From NCBI GenBank assembly GCA_040752695.1, contig JBFMGO010000031.1:1-52238 (forward strand): 52,238 bases of DNA. The letters are read 5' to 3'. This DNA is from a bacterium. GTDB lineage: Bacteria > SZUA-182 > DTGQ01. The position numbers were made by a program, and so were the translations under genes. The notes beneath the pieces are model-generated. The model saw only the letters and a list, made by a program, of their open reading frames with translations, made no database searches and was not told the DNA's origin. This document shows positions 42,365 through 52,238 of the stretch, piece by piece. Numbering within the stretch: the first letter of the stretch is position 1; every line of letters begins with the position of its first letter.

Positions 42365-43885
42365 TCACAATTCCCAGATCTCGTATCTCATCGATACCGA
42401 ATCTGTCTCCCGGATGAGATTTACGGTAATAATGCCATTCTCATCGCAGGAAAACTCCTCAATCACCTTATTGACCCCATAGCGTTTTACCTGGATATCG
42501 CCTTTTCCCGGTATCCGGGACAGGTTCCAGTCAGGGTCATAGGGAAAGAAAATCTCGCTCCACATCCGGGGGGAGACAGCCTGACCGTCGCGGTGTTCGG
42601 CACATTCCAGATAGCGGTAATAGCCGATGTTATGCTCCGGATAGATTTCAAACCGCTTGGTAGCGGGAATCCTTGTCCCCTGCTCGAAAATCGGATCAAA
42701 ATACTCCCTGCCTCCGGCTGTCCGGATGACCCCGAATGTCCGGCTCAGGATTTGCTCTACCTGCATCTTTTGCTGAACCATATGGCAGGCGCCAAGGGCT
42801 ATGGAGGCAAAGGGGAGACTGGAGAGGTGCACCTTTTCCCTGCCATACTTTTCCTGCACCCGCTTCAGGATCAGGGGAAGCTGGGAGCCGCCTCCCACCA
42901 GGTAGATTTTTTCTACCTGATCAAGTCCGGTGATCCCTTCGCCTTGAGTCATTTTCGAGTGCAGCACCTCCTCAAGTTTGCTCAATGTCTGATTGACCAG
43001 GGGGAGGAGGCGCTCATAGTAATCCTCCACCCGGAGCCTGATGGAGCCCTCATCGATATGGGCCTCTTCCAGGTCGATCCGCAGGTATTTGGGATCGATG
43101 ATATTGGCCAGGGATTCCTTGGCCTCACAGCACCGGTAGAGAAGGAGTTTTTCCTGTAAGGGAGTTAGACCAGACAACTCTTTGTTTTCGATGACCATCT
43201 GATAGAGGCATTGGTCAAAATCATCGCCACCGAGCTGCTCGATCCCCGCAGAAGCGATGACCGAGTAGCGTTCAGGCTCGATCCTGACCAATGAGACATC
43301 GAAGGTGCCGCCCCCAAGGTCATAGACCAGCACATAGATGGAGTTGCCCTGGTTCGCCTGGCCGCGCAGGCGCTCGGACATGCCGGTATAAGAAAACTCG
43401 ATGGCCGAAGCGGTTGGCTCATCGATGATTCGGGGCGAGACAACAAAGCCCGCCTCACGAAAGCACTCCCTGGTAATGAGCCTCTGTGCTCCGTTGGCAT
43501 TGGCCGGTACAGTCAGGAGGACTTCCAGTTCTTCTTCATCGGTAAGGTGCTGGGTCTGAATGATCGTCTTTTTCAGATGCTTCAAAAAATCTACCAGGAT
43601 ACCCTTGACATCCCGTTGAAACGTCTCCTCACATAACTGCAAGCCCTGAAAGTAGTTTTTTAAGTTTCGCTTAAGAGACCGCACGAGGGTACCCTGCCCG
43701 GCAAAGGCGCACTCCAGGGCTTCCAGCCCATGACATCCTTCTGACGCCCCTTCCGGGTAGAACGAGACGGAAGGGAAAACATCCTTGGTTAAACCGGCAT
43801 GGTTGAATTTCATGACCACTGGTGTATGGTTATCCATGTAGGAAACCACGGTATTGGAAGTACCGTAGTCGATGCCGATTCTCAT
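42365..43885 (-). CDS. Atypical Hsp70-family ATPase (short C-terminus, no helical lid)
   Basis: GIDYGTSNT, DEPTASA, YDLGGGTFDVS, LVGGGSQLP; only 506 aa. Confidence 0.88.
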   Translation of the reverse strand: MRIGIDYGTSNTVVSYMDNHTPVVMKFNHAGLTKDVFPSVSFYPEGASEGCHGLEALECAFAGQGTLVRSLKRNLKNYFQGLQLCEETFQRDVKGILVDFLKHLKKTIIQTQHLTDEEELEVLLTVPANANGAQRLITRECFREAGFVVSPRIIDEPTASAIEFSYTGMSERLRGQANQGNSIYVLVYDLGGGTFDVSLVRIEPERYSVIASAGIEQLGGDDFDQCLYQMVIENKELSGLTPLQEKLLLYRCCEAKESLANIIDPKYLRIDLEEAHIDEGSIRLRVEDYYERLLPLVNQTLSKLEEVLHSKMTQGEGITGLDQVEKIYLVGGGSQLPLILKRVQEKYGREKVHLSSLPFASIALGACHMVQQKMQVEQILSRTFGVIRTAGGREYFDPIFEQGTRIPATKRFEIYPEHNIGYYRYLECAEHRDGQAVSPRMWSEIFFPYDPDWNLSRIPGKGDIQVKRYGVNKVIEEFSCDENGIITVNLIRETDSVSMRYEIWEL

Positions 43886-44682
43886 ATTGATATCCTCCTG
43901 TTTACAACCACTTGCGGCTTGATGACCATCTCCTGGTTGTACTCCCAGAAAAACCCCTCTCGAAGAACGGCCAGAATTGCCGATTCACCATGGTCCGCGT
44001 TCCAGGAGAAATCGACCTCCTCGTGAAGAGCCGGGTTGAACTTTTCTCCAACCTGAGGTGAAATGCGCTTCAATTTGCTGTTTTCCAGGATGTAATCCAG
44101 ATCATCCTCCAGGTCCAGAAGATGCGAGGCCGCCGCATCACCCCTCTCGCCGGTCAGTTTCTTTCGTATCTTTTGTACCTTCAGGGATAATTTGGCTACA
44201 GGGACCAGGAGCCCCTTGATCCTTTTGGCCACATGCTCTTCCAACCGCCGGTTGATGAAGACGGTTACCTCCTCCTCTAACTGCATGAGCAGAGGATCGG
44301 CAACCTTGACCTCATCACGGATACCGAGTCCATTATCCTCATGGGCTTCAGCCTTCTCACGGACTTCAGTCTTCTCATGGGCTTCAGCCTTCTCATGGGC
44401 TGTTATATTTTGGTTTTCTCCAATGTGAGTTCCCGCACCATGGGCTTTCATGTCATGAACTTCCCTGTTATGGACTTGTGCAGTATGGACTTTTTTCTGA
44501 CTACAGGCTCCTCCGCTATAGGATTCTCCTTTGTTGTCGGATTCCTGCTGGGTAATGTCTTTTTGCATCTGAAGGACCTCCTCCCCTGTAGAATCTCCCC
44601 AAGTGCCTCTCAGCCCGATAATACGTTCGGGCTGAGAGATGGCGAGCATCCTTTTTCTTTTGACCTTCTTTTTCTTAGACAT
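43882..44682 (-). CDS. grpE: GrpE-like nucleotide exchange factor with repeat-rich N-terminus
   Basis: GEKFNPALHE...VLREGF...VIKPQVVV; 4-nt overlap with the hsp70 start. Confidence 0.75.
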   Translation of the reverse strand: MSKKKKVKRKRMLAISQPERIIGLRGTWGDSTGEEVLQMQKDITQQESDNKGESYSGGACSQKKVHTAQVHNREVHDMKAHGAGTHIGENQNITAHEKAEAHEKTEVREKAEAHEDNGLGIRDEVKVADPLLMQLEEEVTVFINRRLEEHVAKRIKGLLVPVAKLSLKVQKIRKKLTGERGDAAASHLLDLEDDLDYILENSKLKRISPQVGEKFNPALHEEVDFSWNADHGESAILAVLREGFFWEYNQEMVIKPQVVVNRRISI

Positions 44683-45309: not shown

Positions 45310-47556
45310 ATGGAATGTAATCTCAATGCACCCTCTTTACTTCCTTATCTTGATTCTACCGGGGCTCACTTTTCCCTAAGACTCTCGCTGGTGACGGAAG
45401 AGGCTTCTTCTCTGGAAAAAGCCCCTTTTCCTTTTGTGGTTATTACTGACTCAGACCCTCTTACCCGCCTGATTGAGGCACGGCTGCTCACCGATGCCGG
45501 CAGCGAGATCAAGAAAGTATTCCTCCTGGTTCAAAAAGACCAATACCTCCTGGCCAGGGATGAACTGCGGCCTATAGGGAACCAGGATATCGATACCTTC
45601 TGGCAGAAGGCATTCTCGTCGTACGAGAGCGGGAACGGGAAAGACGACAGCTCTTTCATCACCCTTGCCTGTCAGACAGGCGGTCAGCGGACAGAAGGGC
45701 AGGGGAGTCAAAATTCTCAAAACAATGGCCAGGGAGAGCGAAAAGGGTGTTTATTGCCTTTTCAATCCCTGTTCTTCTGCAAGCACAGCAGGCTTTTTTT
45801 TGCCCCGCCCTGTCCGGAGTGCGGTCTAGCCGTGCAGCAATGCTGTGATGATGACCTTTTGATCCGATGCGGACTTCAGCCGTATTCGACCTCTCTGAAG
45901 CGGTATTTGTTTTGCCCCTCATGCGTTGCTTCCGGCACGAGTCCTACTTTTTACACCCTTGGGCTGGAAAGTTTTGCCTCTCCCGGCCTCAAGGACAGGT
46001 GGGATTTAATCAGAGGGTTCGGTCACTTGCTCAAGGGCGGAAATAACTATAACAGTGAGCAGTTTATCTGTTGGGAATGCCCCGGCCAAAAGGAGTGTTA
46101 CAGCTCGGACAGCCTCTTCCTCTCGCGGATTGTGCCTTTCTCCTTCTATCCTTTTCGCATGTTTATCATAGAAGCCATGTCGCTTCACGCCATGGATTTT
46201 TTGTCCCTTGTCTCGGGGGCCTCGTGCGATGAGATCGAAACCCAGCTTGCATCAAAGCAGGAATTCGGGAGAGCGGGGTGTTTGAAGGCTGTAGTACATC
46301 AATGCAATCCAGCCTGGACATTCATGTTTTTCGGTCAGGCTGACCGGCACTTTCTTGAGGTCTTACACCTCAAGCTTTCCTTTTTAAGTGAAGTTATTCG
46401 AAAGATTTCCACGGCTTCAGGGTCCGGCATCAGCAGCCGGCCTGATCTGGGATTATCACTCGATCAGATCTGGGTCAAGCTGGCCAAAAGGTCAGGTCTT
46501 CTCCCCCTTTTCTGGAGCTTTTCCGTAGAGGTGCTGAACCTGGGGAAAACCGCCATCCCGGATAATTCGCCGCCCCGGCCCCTGCCACCTCATGATCTTC
46601 ATGTTCTCGGACTCATCTGGTTCTACGCACTTATCGTTAACCGGAAGCAAAACATTTCGAAGGTGTATCAGCTCCTGAGACAGGCTGCGATGGCGAGTGA
46701 GAATGATGCCGCCTCCGGTAACGGGTCCGGCTATCAGGGGAGTTTCCCAAAGACAGATAAGGCATTTGCTCCTGAAAACATATTCTGGAACCCGGAAGAC
46801 AGAGCGATTGATACAAACTCCCATCCTCTGTGGGAGAAATCCCTCGATCTTGGGTGGTCTTTATTGAAGGCAAGCCTTCATTACTCTCCTCAATGGTCAG
46901 GGAAGGAATTCCTTCAGCACATAGAAACGTTGAGAGAAGAAGTGAAAAGCGCTCTGTTCCAGGGAAAAACCTGCGATGGGAACTGGAGTGATATTCCGGC
47001 ACAGAGCCAGGGCCGGCATTTGGACCAGCATTTGATACAAAACCAGCATCCAATGCCGGGCCACCGAATGGCAGACAATACCGGTATAGACCTTTCGGAA
47101 GGCTGTGAGAATCCCCTGAAAGAAAATAATAAGGCTGTTCAAGCTATCCTGACACGCATCATGGACAAATGGCGTGTGACAGAGGCTGAACAACCCTGGG
47201 GAGTGCCAGCCGTGGTTGAGACAGGAGAAGCTGAGTCAAGAGAAGCCCAGTCGGGAGAAACTGAGTCAGGAGAAACGGAGTTGGGAGAAACTGAGCCGGG
47301 AGAAATTGAGTCAGGAGAAGCTGAGTCGAGAGAAATTGCGTCAGGAGAAGCTAAGTCAGGAGAAGAGGAATTAGCTGCCTGGGCCTCATCCAACCGGCTC
47401 GGTGAATGGACCTCTTCCGATGAGGTTGACGAGGAGATTCTCAATCAGGAAAATACGTTCGATAACGGCCATGACCGGGATGAATTCCTGGCCGGGGTAA
47501 CTGCCCGGGGATCAGAGAGAAAGATCCGGGGCAAGAGAAAAAAGGGGCGCAGGTAA
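45310..47556 (+). CDS. Large hypothetical protein: Cys-rich region + kinase-like segment + acidic repeat tail
   Basis: CPEC, CPSC, CWECPGQKEC; DLHVLGLIWF resembles kinase subdomain IX; 748 aa. Confidence 0.75.
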   Translation: MECNLNAPSLLPYLDSTGAHFSLRLSLVTEEASSLEKAPFPFVVITDSDPLTRLIEARLLTDAGSEIKKVFLLVQKDQYLLARDELRPIGNQDIDTFWQKAFSSYESGNGKDDSSFITLACQTGGQRTEGQGSQNSQNNGQGERKGCLLPFQSLFFCKHSRLFFAPPCPECGLAVQQCCDDDLLIRCGLQPYSTSLKRYLFCPSCVASGTSPTFYTLGLESFASPGLKDRWDLIRGFGHLLKGGNNYNSEQFICWECPGQKECYSSDSLFLSRIVPFSFYPFRMFIIEAMSLHAMDFLSLVSGASCDEIETQLASKQEFGRAGCLKAVVHQCNPAWTFMFFGQADRHFLEVLHLKLSFLSEVIRKISTASGSGISSRPDLGLSLDQIWVKLAKRSGLLPLFWSFSVEVLNLGKTAIPDNSPPRPLPPHDLHVLGLIWFYALIVNRKQNISKVYQLLRQAAMASENDAASGNGSGYQGSFPKTDKAFAPENIFWNPEDRAIDTNSHPLWEKSLDLGWSLLKASLHYSPQWSGKEFLQHIETLREEVKSALFQGKTCDGNWSDIPAQSQGRHLDQHLIQNQHPMPGHRMADNTGIDLSEGCENPLKENNKAVQAILTRIMDKWRVTEAEQPWGVPAVVETGEAESREAQSGETESGETELGETEPGEIESGEAESREIASGEAKSGEEELAAWASSNRLGEWTSSDEVDEEILNQENTFDNGHDRDEFLAGVTARGSERKIRGKRKKGRR
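47224..47373 (+). repeat. 15-bp coding tandem repeat x10 (GE(A/T)ES-like pentapeptide)
   Basis: ggagaagctgagtca consensus repeated in register. Confidence 0.9.
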
Positions 47557-48413
47557 TGAGCCGTATTCCCTTTGATGGAATGCCTATAGATGAAATGCCT
47601 TTCGGTGAAATGCCTTCCCGTGAAGCGCCTTCAGGTGAAATATTTTCGGATGACATGTCCTTAGACGAAATGGTCAATGACTTACAGAATATCTACCAGT
47701 CGGACCCCTCAGGGTCCGAAGCGCTGATTGAAAAATACCTTGAGGAAAAACTGGCGGGGATTTTGCCCGGGGGAAGGCTGCCGCTTATTGAAAAACTCGC
47801 CCAAACCCTGGAGAGCAAGACATCGGAAGCACCCGGCGTCCCTCCTTCTGGATTGTCCGGTTCTGGCTGCATGGGATCTCTTGAGCATGCAAAGCTGCTC
47901 TCTTTCCTTCTGGGCAAGGATGTCGCCGGCGAGGATTTTTCCTTAGCCGGGCTTCTGGCAGAAATGACGTCTTCCCTCAAGGCTATTCATGGTACTCTCA
48001 ATCGAATTACCGATACCATCAACACCACTCTCCTTGGCAGAAGGACCGATATGGACTCGATCAGGCAGATTATCGGTTCCACTTTTGAGGACCCCAAGCC
48101 CTCAACCTCCCTGAAAGAGCGCCTGGACCGAATCAACGATGCCTTTTTAATCGCTCGACAGGCTTTCAGACAGGCGGTTCAGGCCAGGTTGGGCGAAATC
48201 CTGTTTGAGCTGAATCCTGATCGTCTTGAATCCACTACCAGTGGAGGCTTGCGATTCGGTCCGCTTCGCAAGGCCGAACTGTTCGAAATCTACAAGGAAA
48301 AATACCAAACCTGTCAGCGGTGGTTCGAATCGGGTCATCTTATGGAAGAAATCCTGAGAGAATTTGAGAGAGCCTGCCAGAAAATATACTCCGAAAAAGG
48401 GGTCGAAGGCTGA
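47556..48413 (+). CDS. Hypothetical protein with TagH (T6SS FHA protein) C-terminal-like domain, no FHA
   Basis: EILFELNPDRLE...RKAELFEIYKEKY...REFERAC resembles the TagH C-domain; 1-nt overlap with the upstream stop. Confidence 0.6.
   Translation: MSRIPFDGMPIDEMPFGEMPSREAPSGEIFSDDMSLDEMVNDLQNIYQSDPSGSEALIEKYLEEKLAGILPGGRLPLIEKLAQTLESKTSEAPGVPPSGLSGSGCMGSLEHAKLLSFLLGKDVAGEDFSLAGLLAEMTSSLKAIHGTLNRITDTINTTLLGRRTDMDSIRQIIGSTFEDPKPSTSLKERLDRINDAFLIARQAFRQAVQARLGEILFELNPDRLESTTSGGLRFGPLRKAELFEIYKEKYQTCQRWFESGHLMEEILREFERACQKIYSEKGVEG
47565..47669 (+). repeat. 15-bp coding tandem repeat x7 (MPxxE-like)
   Basis: IPFDG MPIDE MPFGE MPSRE APSGE IFSDD MSLDE. Confidence 0.75.
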
Positions 48414-48430
48414 CAAACCGGGAATCCCCG

Positions 48431-48480
48431 GCGCTGCCTTCACACGGCAGGGGGGCTAGTGGTTCAGGCTTGATAGTGCC
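48431..48480 (+). repeat. Degenerate tRNA-Val(CAC) fragment, copy 1
   Basis: Intact anticodon arm ctgcc-ttCACac-ggcag, then a decayed T-arm/acceptor. Confidence 0.75.
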
Positions 48481-48601
48481 CATCTTGGTAGTACGTTGGA
48501 AAGCAAGAGATTAGAGATGGATTAATTTTTCGCAAGGAGTAGTGGGCGGATTCCCCCTTGATTTCCCCTTAGAGAAAAAAATCTATTTGCCAATTTCATA
48601 A

Positions 48602-48901
48602 TCAGAGTATCAGACGAAGAACATCGCACGAGGTCAATGCTCTCAAAATCTCCCTGAATTCATCCAATGAGGTCACTTTGGCAGCCTTTCTCAGGACCAT
48701 ATGCAGGACTGCTACCTCATCGATCTGCTTTACTGATTTAACAATCTCATCGGGTACCAGGTTAAATCGGTCCTCGATGATTTCGAGAATATCCTGCTGA
48801 GTGGCTTGCCGCACACCCTGCTGCATACCTTCTTTGATGCCCTGCTGGATTCCCTCATCGATCCATTCCTGGACAATATTAGCGGTTTTGATCATCTGCA
48901 T
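48602..48901 (-). CDS. C-terminal module of Rpn/DUF4351-like protein (fragment or stand-alone small protein)
   Basis: EGIQQGIKEGMQQG repeat + ILEIIEDRF..VP...IDEVAVL...AAKVTSLDEF; GGAGG before ATG 48895. Confidence 0.72.
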   Translation of the reverse strand: MQMIKTANIVQEWIDEGIQQGIKEGMQQGVRQATQQDILEIIEDRFNLVPDEIVKSVKQIDEVAVLHMVLRKAAKVTSLDEFREILRALTSCDVLRLIL

Positions 48902-48910
48902 CTCCTCCCT

Positions 48911-48987
48911 ATCGGGTAAGCGGGGGGCTGTTACCAGGCCCAACTCCCCTAAGAACGGTACGTGCAAGTTTCCCCGCATACCGTCTT
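48911..48987 (-). mobile_element. Group II intron 3' remnant (domains V-VI)
   Basis: Minus strand ACGGTATGCGGGGAAACTTGCACGTACCGTTC (D5 with GAAA loop) + GGGGAG...GGTAAC...CTTACCCGAT (D6, AY end); no RT ORF. Confidence 0.85.
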
Positions 48988-49144
48988 ACACGGACACCTT
49001 TGGTGAGGACACGGATATACTATCAACCCACAGTCCTATACAAAGCTGGATGCTGCGGGGAATGAGCTGCCAGATTCCGCTACGTCATGGAGTATGGTCA
49101 CCTGCGAAAATCTTTATATGTCATTTCTGTTAATTTTTTAAATG

Positions 49145-49184
49145 AACGCGGAGGAATTGCCGTCCGAGTGTATGCCTGTTAGTC
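49145..49184 (-). mobile_element. Truncated attC-like site downstream of the methyltransferase
   Basis: Minus strand GACTAAC-AGGCATACACTCGGACGGCAATTCC starting 6 nt after the stop; right arm not found. Confidence 0.55.
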
Positions 49185-49190
49185 ATTCTT

Positions 49191-49811
49191 TCACTTTTCC
49201 CTTTTGAATAAAGCATAAATATATGGTCTTGGATCACCATTTGGATTTATGTATATATAGTTAAAATGGGACATTAGTGTAAATGACGATCCCAGTCTTT
49301 CCGATAGTTCTTCAATAGAATACCGATGAAGCGTTAATCCCGCACATTTAGACGCACCTGTTTTTGAAAATTCGGCAAACATGGCGTAACTGTCTACTTT
49401 TAGTATTGATTTTAGATTGTTAAAGTATCCTCTTATATCATCTTCATCTGTCAGAAAATGTAAAACTGCCCTGTCAATCCATATATCAATATCCGGTATT
49501 GCATCTTGGATTGGTTGGGCGATGTCTTGGCAAAGATAGTAGATGCCTTTGCTTCTGTCGCCTAACCTGCTCTTAACTCTGTTTATAGCCTCTATGCTGA
49601 TATCATTGAGAACTAATGTCGTGCCCTTGCCCAGAAGTCCTTCGATCAAAAGTGAAGTTCCCACGCCAGGGACAAATATCGTAGAATTATCCCATCCCGG
49701 AATAAGATTCAATAATTCAAATAACTTGGATGGGTCCTTTTCATACCAACCCAGTTTTGAATCTTCTGTGCCGGAAAAAATTTTATCCCAATGCTCACTC
49801 CTCGATTTCAT
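49191..49811 (-). CDS. Class I SAM-dependent methyltransferase
   Basis: HWDKIF, VPGVGTS, NDIS, DIWIDRAVLHFL, KCAGL; visibly AT-rich. Confidence 0.88.
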   Translation of the reverse strand: MKSRSEHWDKIFSGTEDSKLGWYEKDPSKLFELLNLIPGWDNSTIFVPGVGTSLLIEGLLGKGTTLVLNDISIEAINRVKSRLGDRSKGIYYLCQDIAQPIQDAIPDIDIWIDRAVLHFLTDEDDIRGYFNNLKSILKVDSYAMFAEFSKTGASKCAGLTLHRYSIEELSERLGSSFTLMSHFNYIYINPNGDPRPYIYALFKREK

Positions 49812-49896
49812 ACTTATTCTCCTCTTTTAGGGCTAACTGTAATACTATAATACCACATTATTTCTGAGTTACAAATGGTTTAAATGATATTTATCC

Positions 49897-49935
49897 GGTT
49901 CGATCCCAGTATCGCCCATTTTTTAAGGCTTTGAA
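49897..49935 (+). repeat. tRNA-Val 3'-end fragment plus downstream flank, copy 2
   Basis: ggttcgatcccagtatcgcccattttttaaggctttgaa, 39 bp identical to 51842-51880. Confidence 0.9.
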
Positions 49936-49992
49936 ATTTAATACTTTATAAATCAGAGAGGAATTTCCAGAAAAAACCCATTATTCTTTCTC

Positions 49993-50021
49993 TTGAACTC
50001 TACACAAAATATGTGTATTAT
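49993..50021 (+). promoter_or_regulatory. vapBC promoter with palindromic operator
   Basis: TTGAAC-17 nt-TATTAT overlapping TACACA-N5-TGTGTA (50001-50017). Confidence 0.7.
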
Positions 50022-50047
50022 ATATATCGAATACACATGAGGAGAAT

Positions 50048-50254
50048 ATGATGCGAACGAATATCGATATTAACGACAGCTTACTGGAAGAAGCTTTTTC
50101 TCTCAGCCGTGCCAGAACTAAAAAGGATCTGATCCACGAAGCTCTGCAAGAATATATCAGGTTGAAAAAACGGAAAGATCTTACTGAATTAGCTGGATCA
50201 ATCGAATTCTATGAAGGTTATGACCATAAAAAATTAAGGGAAACCAGAGGATGA
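50048..50254 (+). CDS. vapB: Type II antitoxin, VapB family
   Basis: MRTNIDINDSLLEEA...TKKDLIHEAL ribbon-helix-helix pattern; directly upstream of a PIN gene. Confidence 0.9.
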   Translation: MMRTNIDINDSLLEEAFSLSRARTKKDLIHEALQEYIRLKKRKDLTELAGSIEFYEGYDHKKLRETRG

Positions 50255-50257
50255 TTA

Positions 50258-50653
50258 ATGATTCTCGTTGACACCTCTGTCTGGGTCCAGGTTTTAAAAG
50301 ATAAAACCGGCAGGGTAGTACATGCGTTTCGTGAGAGAACAAGTGCAGAAGTAATTGTATTTAGCCGTTTCATTCAGCTCGAATTGCTTCAGGGTGCAAA
50401 AGACGAGTTTGAATGGCGGCGACTCGATGAGTATCTGACGACCCAGTACTATCTTGAAGCAACAGAGGATACCTGGAGGCAGGCAGCGAGGACTTATTTC
50501 GACCTCCGCAGGCAGGGAGTAACCCTAAGAAGCCCGGTTGATTGTTGTATCGCCTGTATAGCCATTGATACCCGCGCCCTTCTTTTACACCGGGATCGGG
50601 ATTTTGAAAAAATTGCCGAAATCAGACCACTTGCCCATGAGTTCTTCAGTTAG
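50258..50653 (+). CDS. vapC: PIN-domain toxin VapC
   Basis: MILVDTSVW, ELLQG, DCCIA, HRDRDF. Confidence 0.92.
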   Translation: MILVDTSVWVQVLKDKTGRVVHAFRERTSAEVIVFSRFIQLELLQGAKDEFEWRRLDEYLTTQYYLEATEDTWRQAARTYFDLRRQGVTLRSPVDCCIACIAIDTRALLLHRDRDFEKIAEIRPLAHEFFS

Positions 50654-50848
50654 AAGCAGCTCCCATTTTTCTCCCATGTTTCCCACCATAAGCGTCCTCA
50701 TCTATCAACTTTCTCTCTTTCTTTTATGCGGTCCAAGGATGCAAGTAAAACGTTCCTGTTTCGATAGGCGTTCTCCGGTCTTCGATGGTCTTCGGGGTGC
50801 ATGCCCCCGATCATCTCCGGGGTTCGGTCTTCCGGCCCGTCTCTGGGG

Positions 50849-50897
50849 GCACTGCCTTCACACAGCAGGGGCCACTGGTTCGATCCCAGTATCGCCA
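50849..50897 (+). repeat. tRNA-Val(CAC) fragment (anticodon arm to acceptor 3' strand), copy 3
   Basis: gcactgccttcacacagcaggggccactggttcgatcccagtatcgcca. Confidence 0.88.
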
Positions 50898-51119
50898 ATT
50901 GTTTAATGCGTTAGAAAACAGGCGGTTAGAGATGAGTAATTTTTCTTGAAAAAAGTAGTAGGTGAATTTCCCCAATGGGTCCCCTCTTGGTTTTCTTCTC
51001 AGAGAGAGACAACTCTGCCATCAATTTCTGTCCCTAATTTTCCTGGATCGTGATAAGCTACAACATAAGGGATGTTTTTCTCCTTTCCATGTTTTCGAAA
51101 ATAAGATATTATATGTATT

Positions 51120-51602
51120 ATGAAAATGAAGCTATATTTGGACACATCCATTCCAAGTGCATACTTTGATTATTCAAAGCCTGTCAGGCAGCTTATTACT
51201 CAGAAATGGTTCGAAAACGATGCATCATCATTTGAACTATATATTTCAGTTATTACTATTGAAGAAATTGAAAAATTAAAAAATTTTAATAAAAGAAATA
51301 AGATTAAAGAATTAATTGTCAATCACAATGTAAAGGTATTGGAAATTTCCTCAGAAGCGATCGAATTAGCCAATGAATATATGAATGCTGGTGCGATCCC
51401 ACAGTCAGAACCTGAAGATGCATATCATATTGCCGTAGCAGCAGTAAATACTGTCGAAACGTTAGCTTCATGGAATTTTAAACACATAGTTAGTATAAAT
51501 CCCATAAGAAAAATCCATGAAGTGAATAGAAAACTTAAGTATCCGATGATTGAAATTGGATCATTAGAATTATTTGGGGGATCTCGATATGGAAACCTAT
51601 AA
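51120..51602 (+). CDS. PIN-domain protein
   Basis: LYLDTSIPS, EDAYHIA, SWNFKHIV. Confidence 0.9.
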   Translation: MKMKLYLDTSIPSAYFDYSKPVRQLITQKWFENDASSFELYISVITIEEIEKLKNFNKRNKIKELIVNHNVKVLEISSEAIELANEYMNAGAIPQSEPEDAYHIAVAAVNTVETLASWNFKHIVSINPIRKIHEVNRKLKYPMIEIGSLELFGGSRYGNL

Positions 51603-51768
51603 GAATGACTATACAAAAGATGAAGATGAAACGCTATGGGAATTACATGAAATCAGGAATGAACTGTATAACAAATTCATATCTAAATCGGTGGGCCAGG
51701 TAAATGAGGAAGCATTGAAAAAATTTCAGACCTGGAAAAAAGAAATAAAGGAAAAAAGCGAGTGTTAA
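51589..51768 (+). CDS. Small protein overlapping the PIN gene, putative antitoxin
   Basis: 59-aa charged helical ORF (DETLWELHEIR) overlapping the PIN 3' end. Confidence 0.65.
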   Translation: METYKNDYTKDEDETLWELHEIRNELYNKFISKSVGQVNEEALKKFQTWKKEIKEKSEC

Positions 51769-51791
51769 GCAACTCTTTCGCACATGGTAAC

Positions 51792-51863
51792 AAATGATTA
51801 GGTCAGCGGGAGGCCCCTGCCTTCACACGGCAGGGGTCACTGGTTCGATCCCAGTATCGCCCA
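51792..51863 (+). pseudogene. Full-length pseudo-tRNA-Val(CAC), copy 4
   Basis: D-, anticodon- and T-arms can pair, but acceptor 5' strand AAATGAT mismatches ATCGCCC at 3 positions; no encoded CCA. Confidence 0.8.
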
Positions 51864-51882
51864 TTTTTTAAGGCTTTGAAGA

Positions 51883-51981
51883 GTAGTACCTCTTCACAGC
51901 CAAGTTTGTGAAGACTGGATTCCCGCTTTCGCGGGAATGATGAAATGACAGACTACAAATTTAAGAGTGAAGAGGTAGTAG
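51883..51981. mobile_element. 91-bp MITE-like element with 11-bp TIRs and GTAG direct repeats
   Basis: GTAG-TACCTCTTCAC...GTGAAGAGGTA-GTAG; internal hairpin attcccgc-tttc-gcgggaat. Confidence 0.7.
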
Positions 51982-52238
51982 ACGCCCCCAGAAGAATAAA
52001 GGCTCACATTCTCCTGCTCAAAAAGTTCCTGTGACGGCGGTAGAAGACAAGTTGAGAGCTATCGAAGGGTTTGTGAATGTATCCGCTATCCTGATAGGAA
52101 TACTTCAAATTCTGGCTCTTCAATTCCCAGAACAAATCTGGAAAGATAATCAACATTGGCTGAGAACCTTTAGCAACAAGGTTCCTTCTGAGTATATTGT
52201 CAAGGGGGTACTGACTCAAACCATCCTGGGGAATTTAC
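51980..52238 (+). pseudogene. Transposase C-terminal remnant (IS701/IS4-like)
   Basis: Start-less open frame RRPQKN...KLRAIEGFVNVSAILIGILQILAL...IW...WLRTFSNKVPSE running off the window. Confidence 0.6.

Follow-up and report, generated by a model that had tools for sequence, protein, structure and literature searches.

A tandem array of tRNA-Val(CAC)-derived repeats on a contig of the phylum SZUA-182, probably the decayed remains of serial tyrosine-integrase insertions

How does a bacterial contig come to hold four partial copies of one tRNA gene, separated by short units of other genes, with neither an intact tRNA nor an integrase beside them? The question is raised by the window analyzed here, a stretch of 52,238 nt that is the whole of contig C31 in assembly GCA_040752695.1 (G000), from a bacterium of the GTDB lineage SZUA-182; DTGQ01. 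The assembly is a metagenome-assembled genome (MAG) of 6.05 Mb in 239 contigs, 96.6% complete. Four copies of tRNA-Val(CAC) sequence, well beyond chance, lie on one strand between 48430 and 51880. A preliminary description of the locus had proposed that the units accrete like cassettes through an integrase acting in trans and had offered, as an alternative, relics of serial insertions eroded down to their addiction modules. The alternative fits best, given a decay series in relatives and the erosion of the first unit. The array probably represents the decayed tandem remains of several insertions by tyrosine-integrase elements specific for tRNA-Val(CAC), similar to cis-mobilizable elements (CIMEs) and most likely immobile now. 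Nothing points to units that are still moving in this genome.

The collection searched comprises 20 genomes of the phylum, of which 13, including G000, belong to the same order; G001 and G002 are relatives from the same genus. Positions within the copies are numbered according to the tRNA-Val(CAC) of G002.

The four copies and their counterparts in relatives

The reported presence of four same-strand copies is borne out by identities to the G002 tRNA of 20/20, 22/22, 47/48 and 63/68. Copy 1 (48430–48482, plus strand; repeat families D6 and D8) begins 17 nt past the stop codon of a 285-aa open reading frame (ORF). It is identical to the G002 gene over positions 26–45, with an intact anticodon stem-loop, and is decayed from there on through the T-arm and acceptor. 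Copy 2 (49897–49935, plus strand) lacks the anticodon arm and consists of positions 51–73, from the T-loop to the discriminator, and 17 nt of flank; the 22 identical nucleotides are 49897–49918, over positions 51–72. Copy 3 (50849–50898, plus strand) covers positions 23–72, the 47/48 match running over positions 23–70 (50849–50896). Copy 4 (51796–51880, plus strand) is a near-complete tRNA-Val(CAC) pseudogene made of positions 5–73 and 17 nt of flank, and matches G002 at 63/68 over positions 5–72 (51796–51863). It scores 35.4 bits with the Rfam tRNA model (gathering score 29; model positions 5–66). The first 4 nt of its acceptor stem are replaced and only 3–4 acceptor pairs are left, while the D-stem is kept paired via a compensatory change. 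As described previously, the most decayed copy is the 5′-most and the most complete is the 3′-most. The T-arm motif GGTTC recurs at the reported spacings of 980 and 965 nt, with its first occurrence at 48461 rather than 48460.

The block from the anticodon arm to the 3′ end is whole only in copies 3 and 4, which are identical to each other at 55/61 positions. None of the four copies has a cloverleaf in its minimum-energy structure; when compared with shuffled sequences, copies 1–3 fold with z of ∼0 and copy 4, as an extended hairpin, with z = −2.84. Williams (in 2002) is said to have distinguished sublocation classes of tRNA integration sites, among them the anticodon stem-loop and the T-loop. 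Three copies begin at such canonical start sites, copies 1 and 3 in the anticodon stem region (positions 26 and 23, respectively) and copy 2 in the T-loop (position 51).

The similarity extends beyond the tRNA. In the alignment, the first ∼20 nt of downstream flank are common to all four copies. The 39-nt identity of copies 2 and 4 that had been noted (49897–49935 and 51842–51880) was confirmed and reaches 17 nt beyond the discriminator. Copies 1 and 3 have ∼100 nt of downstream flank in common, and together with these flanks (48430–48557 and 50848–50973) they are 71% identical over ∼130 nt, with an E value of 2e-7 against the whole genome. The flank of copy 1 (48483–48557, plus strand) is homologous to that of copy 3 (50899–51010, plus strand), and both are read as remnants of an element-derived P′ arm. 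In copies 2 and 4, a 13-mer, TTTTTAAGGCTTT, starts 1 nt past the discriminator base; the whole 6-Mb genome has just 3 occurrences of it. The same 13-mer is found in G005, starting 4 nt past the tRNA end, within the spacer between tRNA and integrase. Because the sequence that follows copies 2 and 4 is that of the G005 spacer, the flanks of the window copies are considered to be element arms and not native chromosome.

When the copy 3 flank was searched across the phylum, the sole match was on contig C11 of G002. There, part of the flank (50924–50973) lies downstream of an ORF end without any tRNA part, within ∼80 nt of flank-like sequence (L043; ∼3184–3233 of C11). By eye only, without a family-library search, the ORF resembles a ParE/RelE-type toxin. 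This flank-like sequence possibly marks a further decayed junction from this element family.

The relatives indicate where the copies came from. Beyond G000, 9 of 12 genomes of the order have a full-length match to tRNA-Val(CAC), and ARAGORN recognizes the intact tRNA at 12 of 14 loci fetched from relatives. Extra 3′ fragments of the gene are found in 5 of the 13 genomes of the order (G000, G003, G005, G007 and G010); outside G000 they start at the anticodon stem, at about positions 27–29 of the tRNA and 29–31 of the search query (two fragments in G007, the others in G010, G003 and G005). On contig C113 of G004, an excisionase-like ORF and a tyrosine integrase converge on the tRNA, with the integrase ending 20 nt from it. 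On contig C90 of G005, the integrase is in frameshifted pieces, located 28 nt from the tRNA. On contig C358 of the same genome, an element of ∼7.4 kb with an excisionase gene (xis), a frameshifted integrase gene (int) and an ImmA/IrrE-like gene ends in a 100%-identical fragment (tRNA positions 27–75); the gene pair beside this fragment has no Pfam match. Integrase remnants of ∼50 aa directly follow the fragment or tRNA in G003 and G016, and the islets of G007 and G010 (1.7–4.1 kb) have no integrase and are delimited by 3′ fragments beginning at the anticodon stem. The relatives form a decay series, running from integrase with excisionase through frameshifted pieces and ∼50-aa remnants to nothing. 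Because they carry tRNA-Val(CAC) with converging integrases, as well as fragments that start at the same place, the att-site origin proposed in the preliminary description is supported, and each tRNA-like copy in the window is an att junction.

Toxin-antitoxin genes recur in the islets at tRNA-Val(CAC): a ParD-PIN pair in G007, a DUF2283 pair in G010 and an RHH-PIN_3 pair in G003. They are located no more than 500 nt upstream of the fragment in G000, G003, G007 and G010, that is, in four of the five fragment-bearing genomes. A scan of metagenomes with the signature of tRNA end and flank gave 0 matches. A 24-nt T-arm/acceptor string is not lineage-specific, being present in at least 121 metagenome stretches from many lineages. 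In 80 fetched loci this string matched 81 times, 58 times in intact tRNAs and 23 times outside them. For 21 of these 23 fragments (two at contig starts were left out), 79 adjacent ORFs were scanned. Integrases were found at 2 loci, whose flanks do not differ and which may represent one sequence, and no toxin-antitoxin genes were found.

From the G000 assembly, both the target gene and its integrase are missing. ARAGORN detects no tRNA on the 52-kb contig and, among the 42 tRNAs of the genome, Val-GAC and Val-TAC and no Val-CAC. The 5′ half of the native tRNA-Val(CAC) is nowhere in the 6-Mb assembly. No intact tRNA stands at the 5′ side of the array on the contig, and a completeness of 96.6% leaves a gap possible. 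Either tRNA-Val(CAC) has lost its function in this genome, or the gene falls into an assembly gap. In G001, tRNA-Val(CAC) is situated 760 nt from tRNA-SeC; none is present beside the matching tRNA-SeC on contig C9 of G000.

The absence of an integrase from the contig was likewise confirmed. Phage_integrase had no Pfam match at E ≤ 1 among 13 + 36 called ORFs and 43 inter-genic stop-to-stop frames, the run with these frames comprising 46 sequences altogether. A tyrosine integrase that converges on an att copy is found in G004 and G005 but not in the window. Elsewhere in the genome there are 13 Phage_integrase matches, none of them on C31. The tRNA-adjacent integrases of G000 serve Ala-GGC, Thr-CGT and Leu-CAG, and the closest relative that the G004 integrase has there shows 25% identity and is situated beside a tRNA-Leu. 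The assembly contains no cognate integrase close to those adjacent to tRNA-Val(CAC) in G004 and G005. The preliminary description had suggested searching for an intact tRNA-Val(CAC) with an adjacent tyrosine recombinase; this arrangement is present in relatives (G004 and G005) and absent from the G000 assembly.

Taken with the relatives, the array suggests the following course of events. Tyrosine-integrase elements would insert at tRNA-Val(CAC) by a crossover within the anticodon stem-loop, and each element would supply a new 3′ part of the tRNA. Each copy would keep 17–130 nt of the element P′ arm, corresponding to the stretch that separates the tRNA end from the integrase stop in intact relatives, and this step is supported by the comparison. 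Later deletions, of the kind seen in the decay series, would have stripped the integrase and excisionase modules and most of the cargo from the window. The leftovers would be two toxin-antitoxin operons, an orphan methyltransferase and a truncated, intron-interrupted gene. The toxin-antitoxin operons may persist because their loss is counter-selected, or such modules may readily land in decaying islands. A miniature inverted-repeat transposable element (MITE) and an insertion sequence (IS) would have been inserted afterwards, past the last copy. These events seem to have cost the genome its target tRNA-Val(CAC). According to wobble rules, tRNA-Val(UAC) is able to read GUG, and loss of tRNA-Val(CAC) would therefore be tolerable.

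Genes between and beside the copies

The unit between copies 1 and 2 is deletion debris, in which a group II intron is reduced to its final ∼190 nt and its host gene to the 3′ exon. The exon (48602–48910, minus strand) holds the last ∼100 codons of a multi-copy family of ∼310-aa genes, the N-terminal ∼200 codons being gone. In the 125-aa ORF read here, residues 24–125 are 50% and 44% identical to the C termini of paralogs on contigs C72 and C20, residues 1–23 are read from intron sequence, and the homology to the paralogs begins exactly at the 3′ boundary of the intron. The intron remnant (48911–49100, minus strand) comprises domains V–VI and ∼110 nt upstream, the remainder having been deleted. 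The domains match Rfam RF00029 at 48.5 bits (48911–48987, minus strand), and 48986–49100 matches contigs C97 and C113 of G001. An orphan class-I S-adenosylmethionine (SAM)-dependent methyltransferase gene follows (49191–49811, minus strand; Pfam Methyltransf_11 and NodS; 38% G+C). The family of ∼310-aa genes has a (GIQQ)n-rich linker, and its paralogs are located on contigs C72, C20, C19, C125, C11 and C165. With PADLOC, there were weak matches only, of the methyltransferase to mad2 (2.5e-7) and of the 125-aa ORF to a putative invertase (3e-4), and neither was retained.

The second unit is a type II toxin-antitoxin operon on the plus strand, vapB (50048–50254; Pfam VapB_antitoxin, 2.3e-17) and vapC (50258–50653; Pfam PIN, 1.9e-12). 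VapC also matches NCBIfam NF047959 (TA_toxin_VapC), with 129 bits. Just upstream of vapB, a 14-nt inverted repeat with perfectly adjacent arms (50011–50038; repeat I12) is operator-like, and a promoter-like site (49993–50021) overlaps it. The third unit, also on the plus strand and with 32% G+C, consists of a gene for a 160-aa PIN-domain protein (51120–51602; Pfam PIN, 2.8e-8) and an overlapping gene for a 59-aa partner (51589–51768). The partner has no family match, and the pair resembles a toxin-antitoxin module of the toxin-first type. The PIN and partner module is kept in many phyla, with amino-acid identity of up to 88%.

This content agrees with the earlier account of an intron remnant, a methyltransferase, vapBC and a PIN gene with a small partner. 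The Rpn label given to the 125-aa ORF is unconfirmed: the ORF has no Pfam match, and a full-length paralog matches only DUF2887 weakly (22.2 bits, below the cut-off). As for the promoter ascribed to vapBC, the site upstream of vapB is there, and others lie upstream of the PIN gene and the methyltransferase gene; their number in the region (7, as against 9.0 ± 2.6 in shuffles) is not above chance.

The cargo was compared with its homologs elsewhere. The operon of PIN and partner has 85% nucleotide identity in G005 and 70% in G002, with homology limited to 51098–51753 and unrelated flanks; the G002 operon is found ∼1.5 kb beyond the syntenic GrpE-like gene. Among 80 PIN homolog loci from many phyla (33%–88% identity), of which at least 21 have the partner region after the PIN gene, none carries copy 4 or copy 3 with its flank, and any tRNA gene is present at only one. 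Similarly, the vapB region has a 77% match on contig C13 of G002, without tRNA-derived boundary copies. In these comparisons, the cargo does not travel with the boundary sites as it would in an integron-like system.

Public sequencing runs were also searched for the locus. The best run holds at most 15% of the sampled words, and in the four runs compared (Logan contigs, from other communities) there are only relatives of single parts of the locus. The segment 51025–51758 is covered, with 13 differences, by a contig of run X1 that matches the stretch over only part of its length. One contig of this run goes from 51757 through 24 other letters to ∼48379, where the second side is ∼20 nt, and there are three other joints in the runs (48453 to 50866, 49936 to 50955 and 50262 to 51261). 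The sides of these joints are short (20–24 nt; 88% likeness), and none of the four was taken as a junction.

A MITE-like repeat of ∼97 nt with 26-nt terminal inverted repeats (51884–51980; repeat I2) is inserted 20 nt after copy 4. It has copies with 88%–95% identity on contigs C120, C52, C74, C76 and C54, and its central palindrome of ∼26 nt is found on dozens of contigs. The contig then ends in the start of a multi-copy IS-like repeat (51977–52238), 98% identical to C18:1531–1792 and 95% to C46. At least six contig ends have this repeat in common, including the start, and not the end, of C86. Adjacency of C31 and C86 is conceivable, as C86-like genes lie downstream of tRNA-Val in G001.

On the other side of the array, 1–44.7 kb of the window is filled by ordinary chromosome (ATP synthase, Mrp/Nuo-type antiporter subunits, AccBC, DksA and an Hsp70-like/GrpE-like pair). 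At the rim of this syntenic backbone (42365–44682, minus strand), the Hsp70-like ORF (506 aa) and the GrpE-like ORF (266 aa) form a pair kept in G001 and G002, and collinearity with both genomes ends at ∼44.67 kb. Two ORFs follow, of 748 aa and 285 aa, and then the array. The 748-aa ORF (45310–47556) contains at least nine tandem 15-nt repeats at 47187–47379 and has no Pfam or NCBIfam match; the 285-aa ORF (47556–48413) has a weak, sub-threshold match to T6SS_FHA_C. Homologs of the two are found together on contig C72 of G002. The array region both interrupts synteny and differs in composition from the backbone, with 32%–44% G+C in the cargo as compared with 48.6%.

Competing explanations

Several observations weigh against serial insertion followed by decay. 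The polarity of the array is the opposite of the textbook arrangement: an intact tRNA is lacking on the 5′ side, and the 3′-most copy is the one closest to complete. Copy 4 starts outside the canonical sites and, because it reaches tRNA position 5, a simple anticodon-loop att site fails for it. Copies 2 and 4 match at 39/39 positions although the array has diverged elsewhere, which suggests a recent event, whether duplication, gene conversion or insertion. Integrase debris, which eroded islands would be expected to leave between the repeats, is seen in the relatives only. No integrase or excisionase debris was found between the window repeats, the best tblastn matches to the G004 and G005 proteins having E values of 0.056–0.09. 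Moreover, homology of the toxin-antitoxin operons to loci elsewhere stops 40–200 nt short of the repeats. Since these operons have homology boundaries of their own, they may be later arrivals and not retained cargo, and erosion down to addiction modules is not strictly shown.

Some of these points would suit an origin of the copies mainly by segmental duplication, gene conversion or rearrangement mediated by IS or other repeats, after one or two insertions and with the tRNA-Val locus moved beside the Hsp70/GrpE backbone; the number of insertions would then be overestimated. The flanks held in common by all four copies (∼20 nt), by copies 1 and 3 (∼100 nt) and by copies 2 and 4 (39 nt) are compatible with this, as are the MITE, IS and intron debris and the reach of copy 4 to position 5, as in a relocated gene copy. 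In addition, tRNA-Val(CAC) lies in other neighborhoods in G001 and G002, and the window locus is rearranged relative to both. Duplication of whole units is excluded, however, because the intervening segments have no similarity to one another and differ in G+C (32%, 38% and 44%), and the start points at the anticodon stem are the same as those of the fragments in the relatives. Ordinary duplication is the likeliest of the rival accounts and is nevertheless improbable.

The cassette hypothesis holds that the ∼1-kb units are active, integrase-less cassettes. An integrase specific for tRNA-Val(CAC), with its gene at another place, would excise, capture and stack them in the manner of an integron. 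Units that are flanked by att sites and lack an integrase conform to the definition of CIMEs (PMC5704250), small toxin-antitoxin islets recur at tRNA-Val(CAC) in four of the five fragment-bearing genomes of the order, copies 2 and 4 share 39 nt without a mismatch, and an integrase could be missing from an assembly that is 96.6% complete. Many further copies, which the preliminary description had expected of such a system, were not found: beyond the four there are none in the 6-Mb assembly. The tRNA-adjacent integrases serve other tRNAs, with the closest one to that of G004 at 25% identity by a tRNA-Leu. The cargo occurs elsewhere without the sites (0 of 80 PIN loci, and unrelated flanks in G002 and G005). 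Within the array, copy 1 is decayed, copy 2 lacks the anticodon-arm core and unit 1 is debris. The proposal of accretion with an integrase in trans is thus not upheld and, behind duplication, is regarded as very unlikely. A related possibility, a long shot that ranks below it, is that an integrase family of the G004/G005 type serves minimal toxin-antitoxin units consisting of the tRNA 3′ half and an arm of ∼100 nt, so that the locus would be a small integron-like stacking platform that consumed the tRNA gene. If this were true, the recurrence of toxin-antitoxin genes at the distal att site in four genomes and the 39-nt identity would reflect recent activity and not decay.

It is also conceivable that co-existing strains had different islands at a hypervariable tRNA-Val locus and that these variants were joined in one contig. 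The assembly is a MAG of 239 contigs, and this contig terminates in a repeat. Among the copies, the longest exact repeat is 39 nt and the longest similar block 66 nt, whereas contig ends overlap by 127 nt, which implies an assembly k of ∼127. Since this k exceeds both repeats, collapse or chimerism through them is unlikely; each copy fits within single k-mers that reach into unique sequence to its left and right. An assembly artefact is the least probable of the explanations considered. Decay of serially inserted elements remains the favored reading, and it makes the locus a well-known kind of genome scar, here in a little-studied phylum.

Comparison with known systems

Integron cassette arrays and clusters of attC sites lacking integron-integrases (CALINs) consist of small units, with or without promoters of their own, arranged head to tail, often rich in toxin-antitoxin genes, and bounded by folded attC sites. 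The array differs in that its boundaries are direct repeats of a tRNA 3′ end, of which copies 1–3 fold no better than shuffles. It has no intI or attI, and its cargo is found elsewhere without these bounds.

Closer counterparts are found among decayed integrative elements. In the CIMEs of ICESt1/ICESt3-related elements of Streptococcus thermophilus, the genes for integration and transfer have been lost, the att copies are kept and tandem accretion occurs, and a three-step model of decay to a CIME and accretion has been put forward (PMC5704250). The array resembles them in its att boundaries, its loss of integration genes and its tandem stacking at the 3′ end of a target gene (PMC5704250). In contrast to CIMEs, its units are far smaller (∼1 kb) and its att copies unequal, one being decayed and one lacking the core; there is no adjacent functional mobilizing element, and the target tRNA is no longer intact.

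Dehalococcoides has tandem islands bounded by ssrA, 15 of them without an integration module (PMC3146451). They are similar to the array in their direct repeats of the 3′ end of a small-RNA gene, in the many islands that lack an integration module and in the conserved sequence beyond the repeat. They differ in having a serine recombinase, a transfer-messenger RNA (tmRNA) target, islands of several kilobases with rdhA, and an intact ssrA that heads the array (PMC3146451).

In the tycheposon islands of Prochlorococcus, adjacent elements are parted by partial tRNAs and integrases are fragmented (bioRxiv 10.1101/2020.12.28.424599). As proposed for the array, elements with tRNA-targeting tyrosine recombinases are inserted serially with only partial tRNAs between them, and scattered partial tRNAs and fragmented integrases stay behind. 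Tycheposons, unlike the window, have recombinase and replication modules, of which none is left in the window, and carry cargo for nutrient acquisition in place of toxin-antitoxin genes (bioRxiv 10.1101/2020.12.28.424599).

Beyond documentation, the importance of the locus is small, with modest interest in the apparent loss of the tRNA and in the survival of toxin-antitoxin pairs at the distal end of the elements. On the favored reading, accretion and decay anchored at tRNAs, as described in Firmicutes, Dehalococcoides and marine cyanobacteria, probably also shape the genomes of this sparsely sampled phylum.

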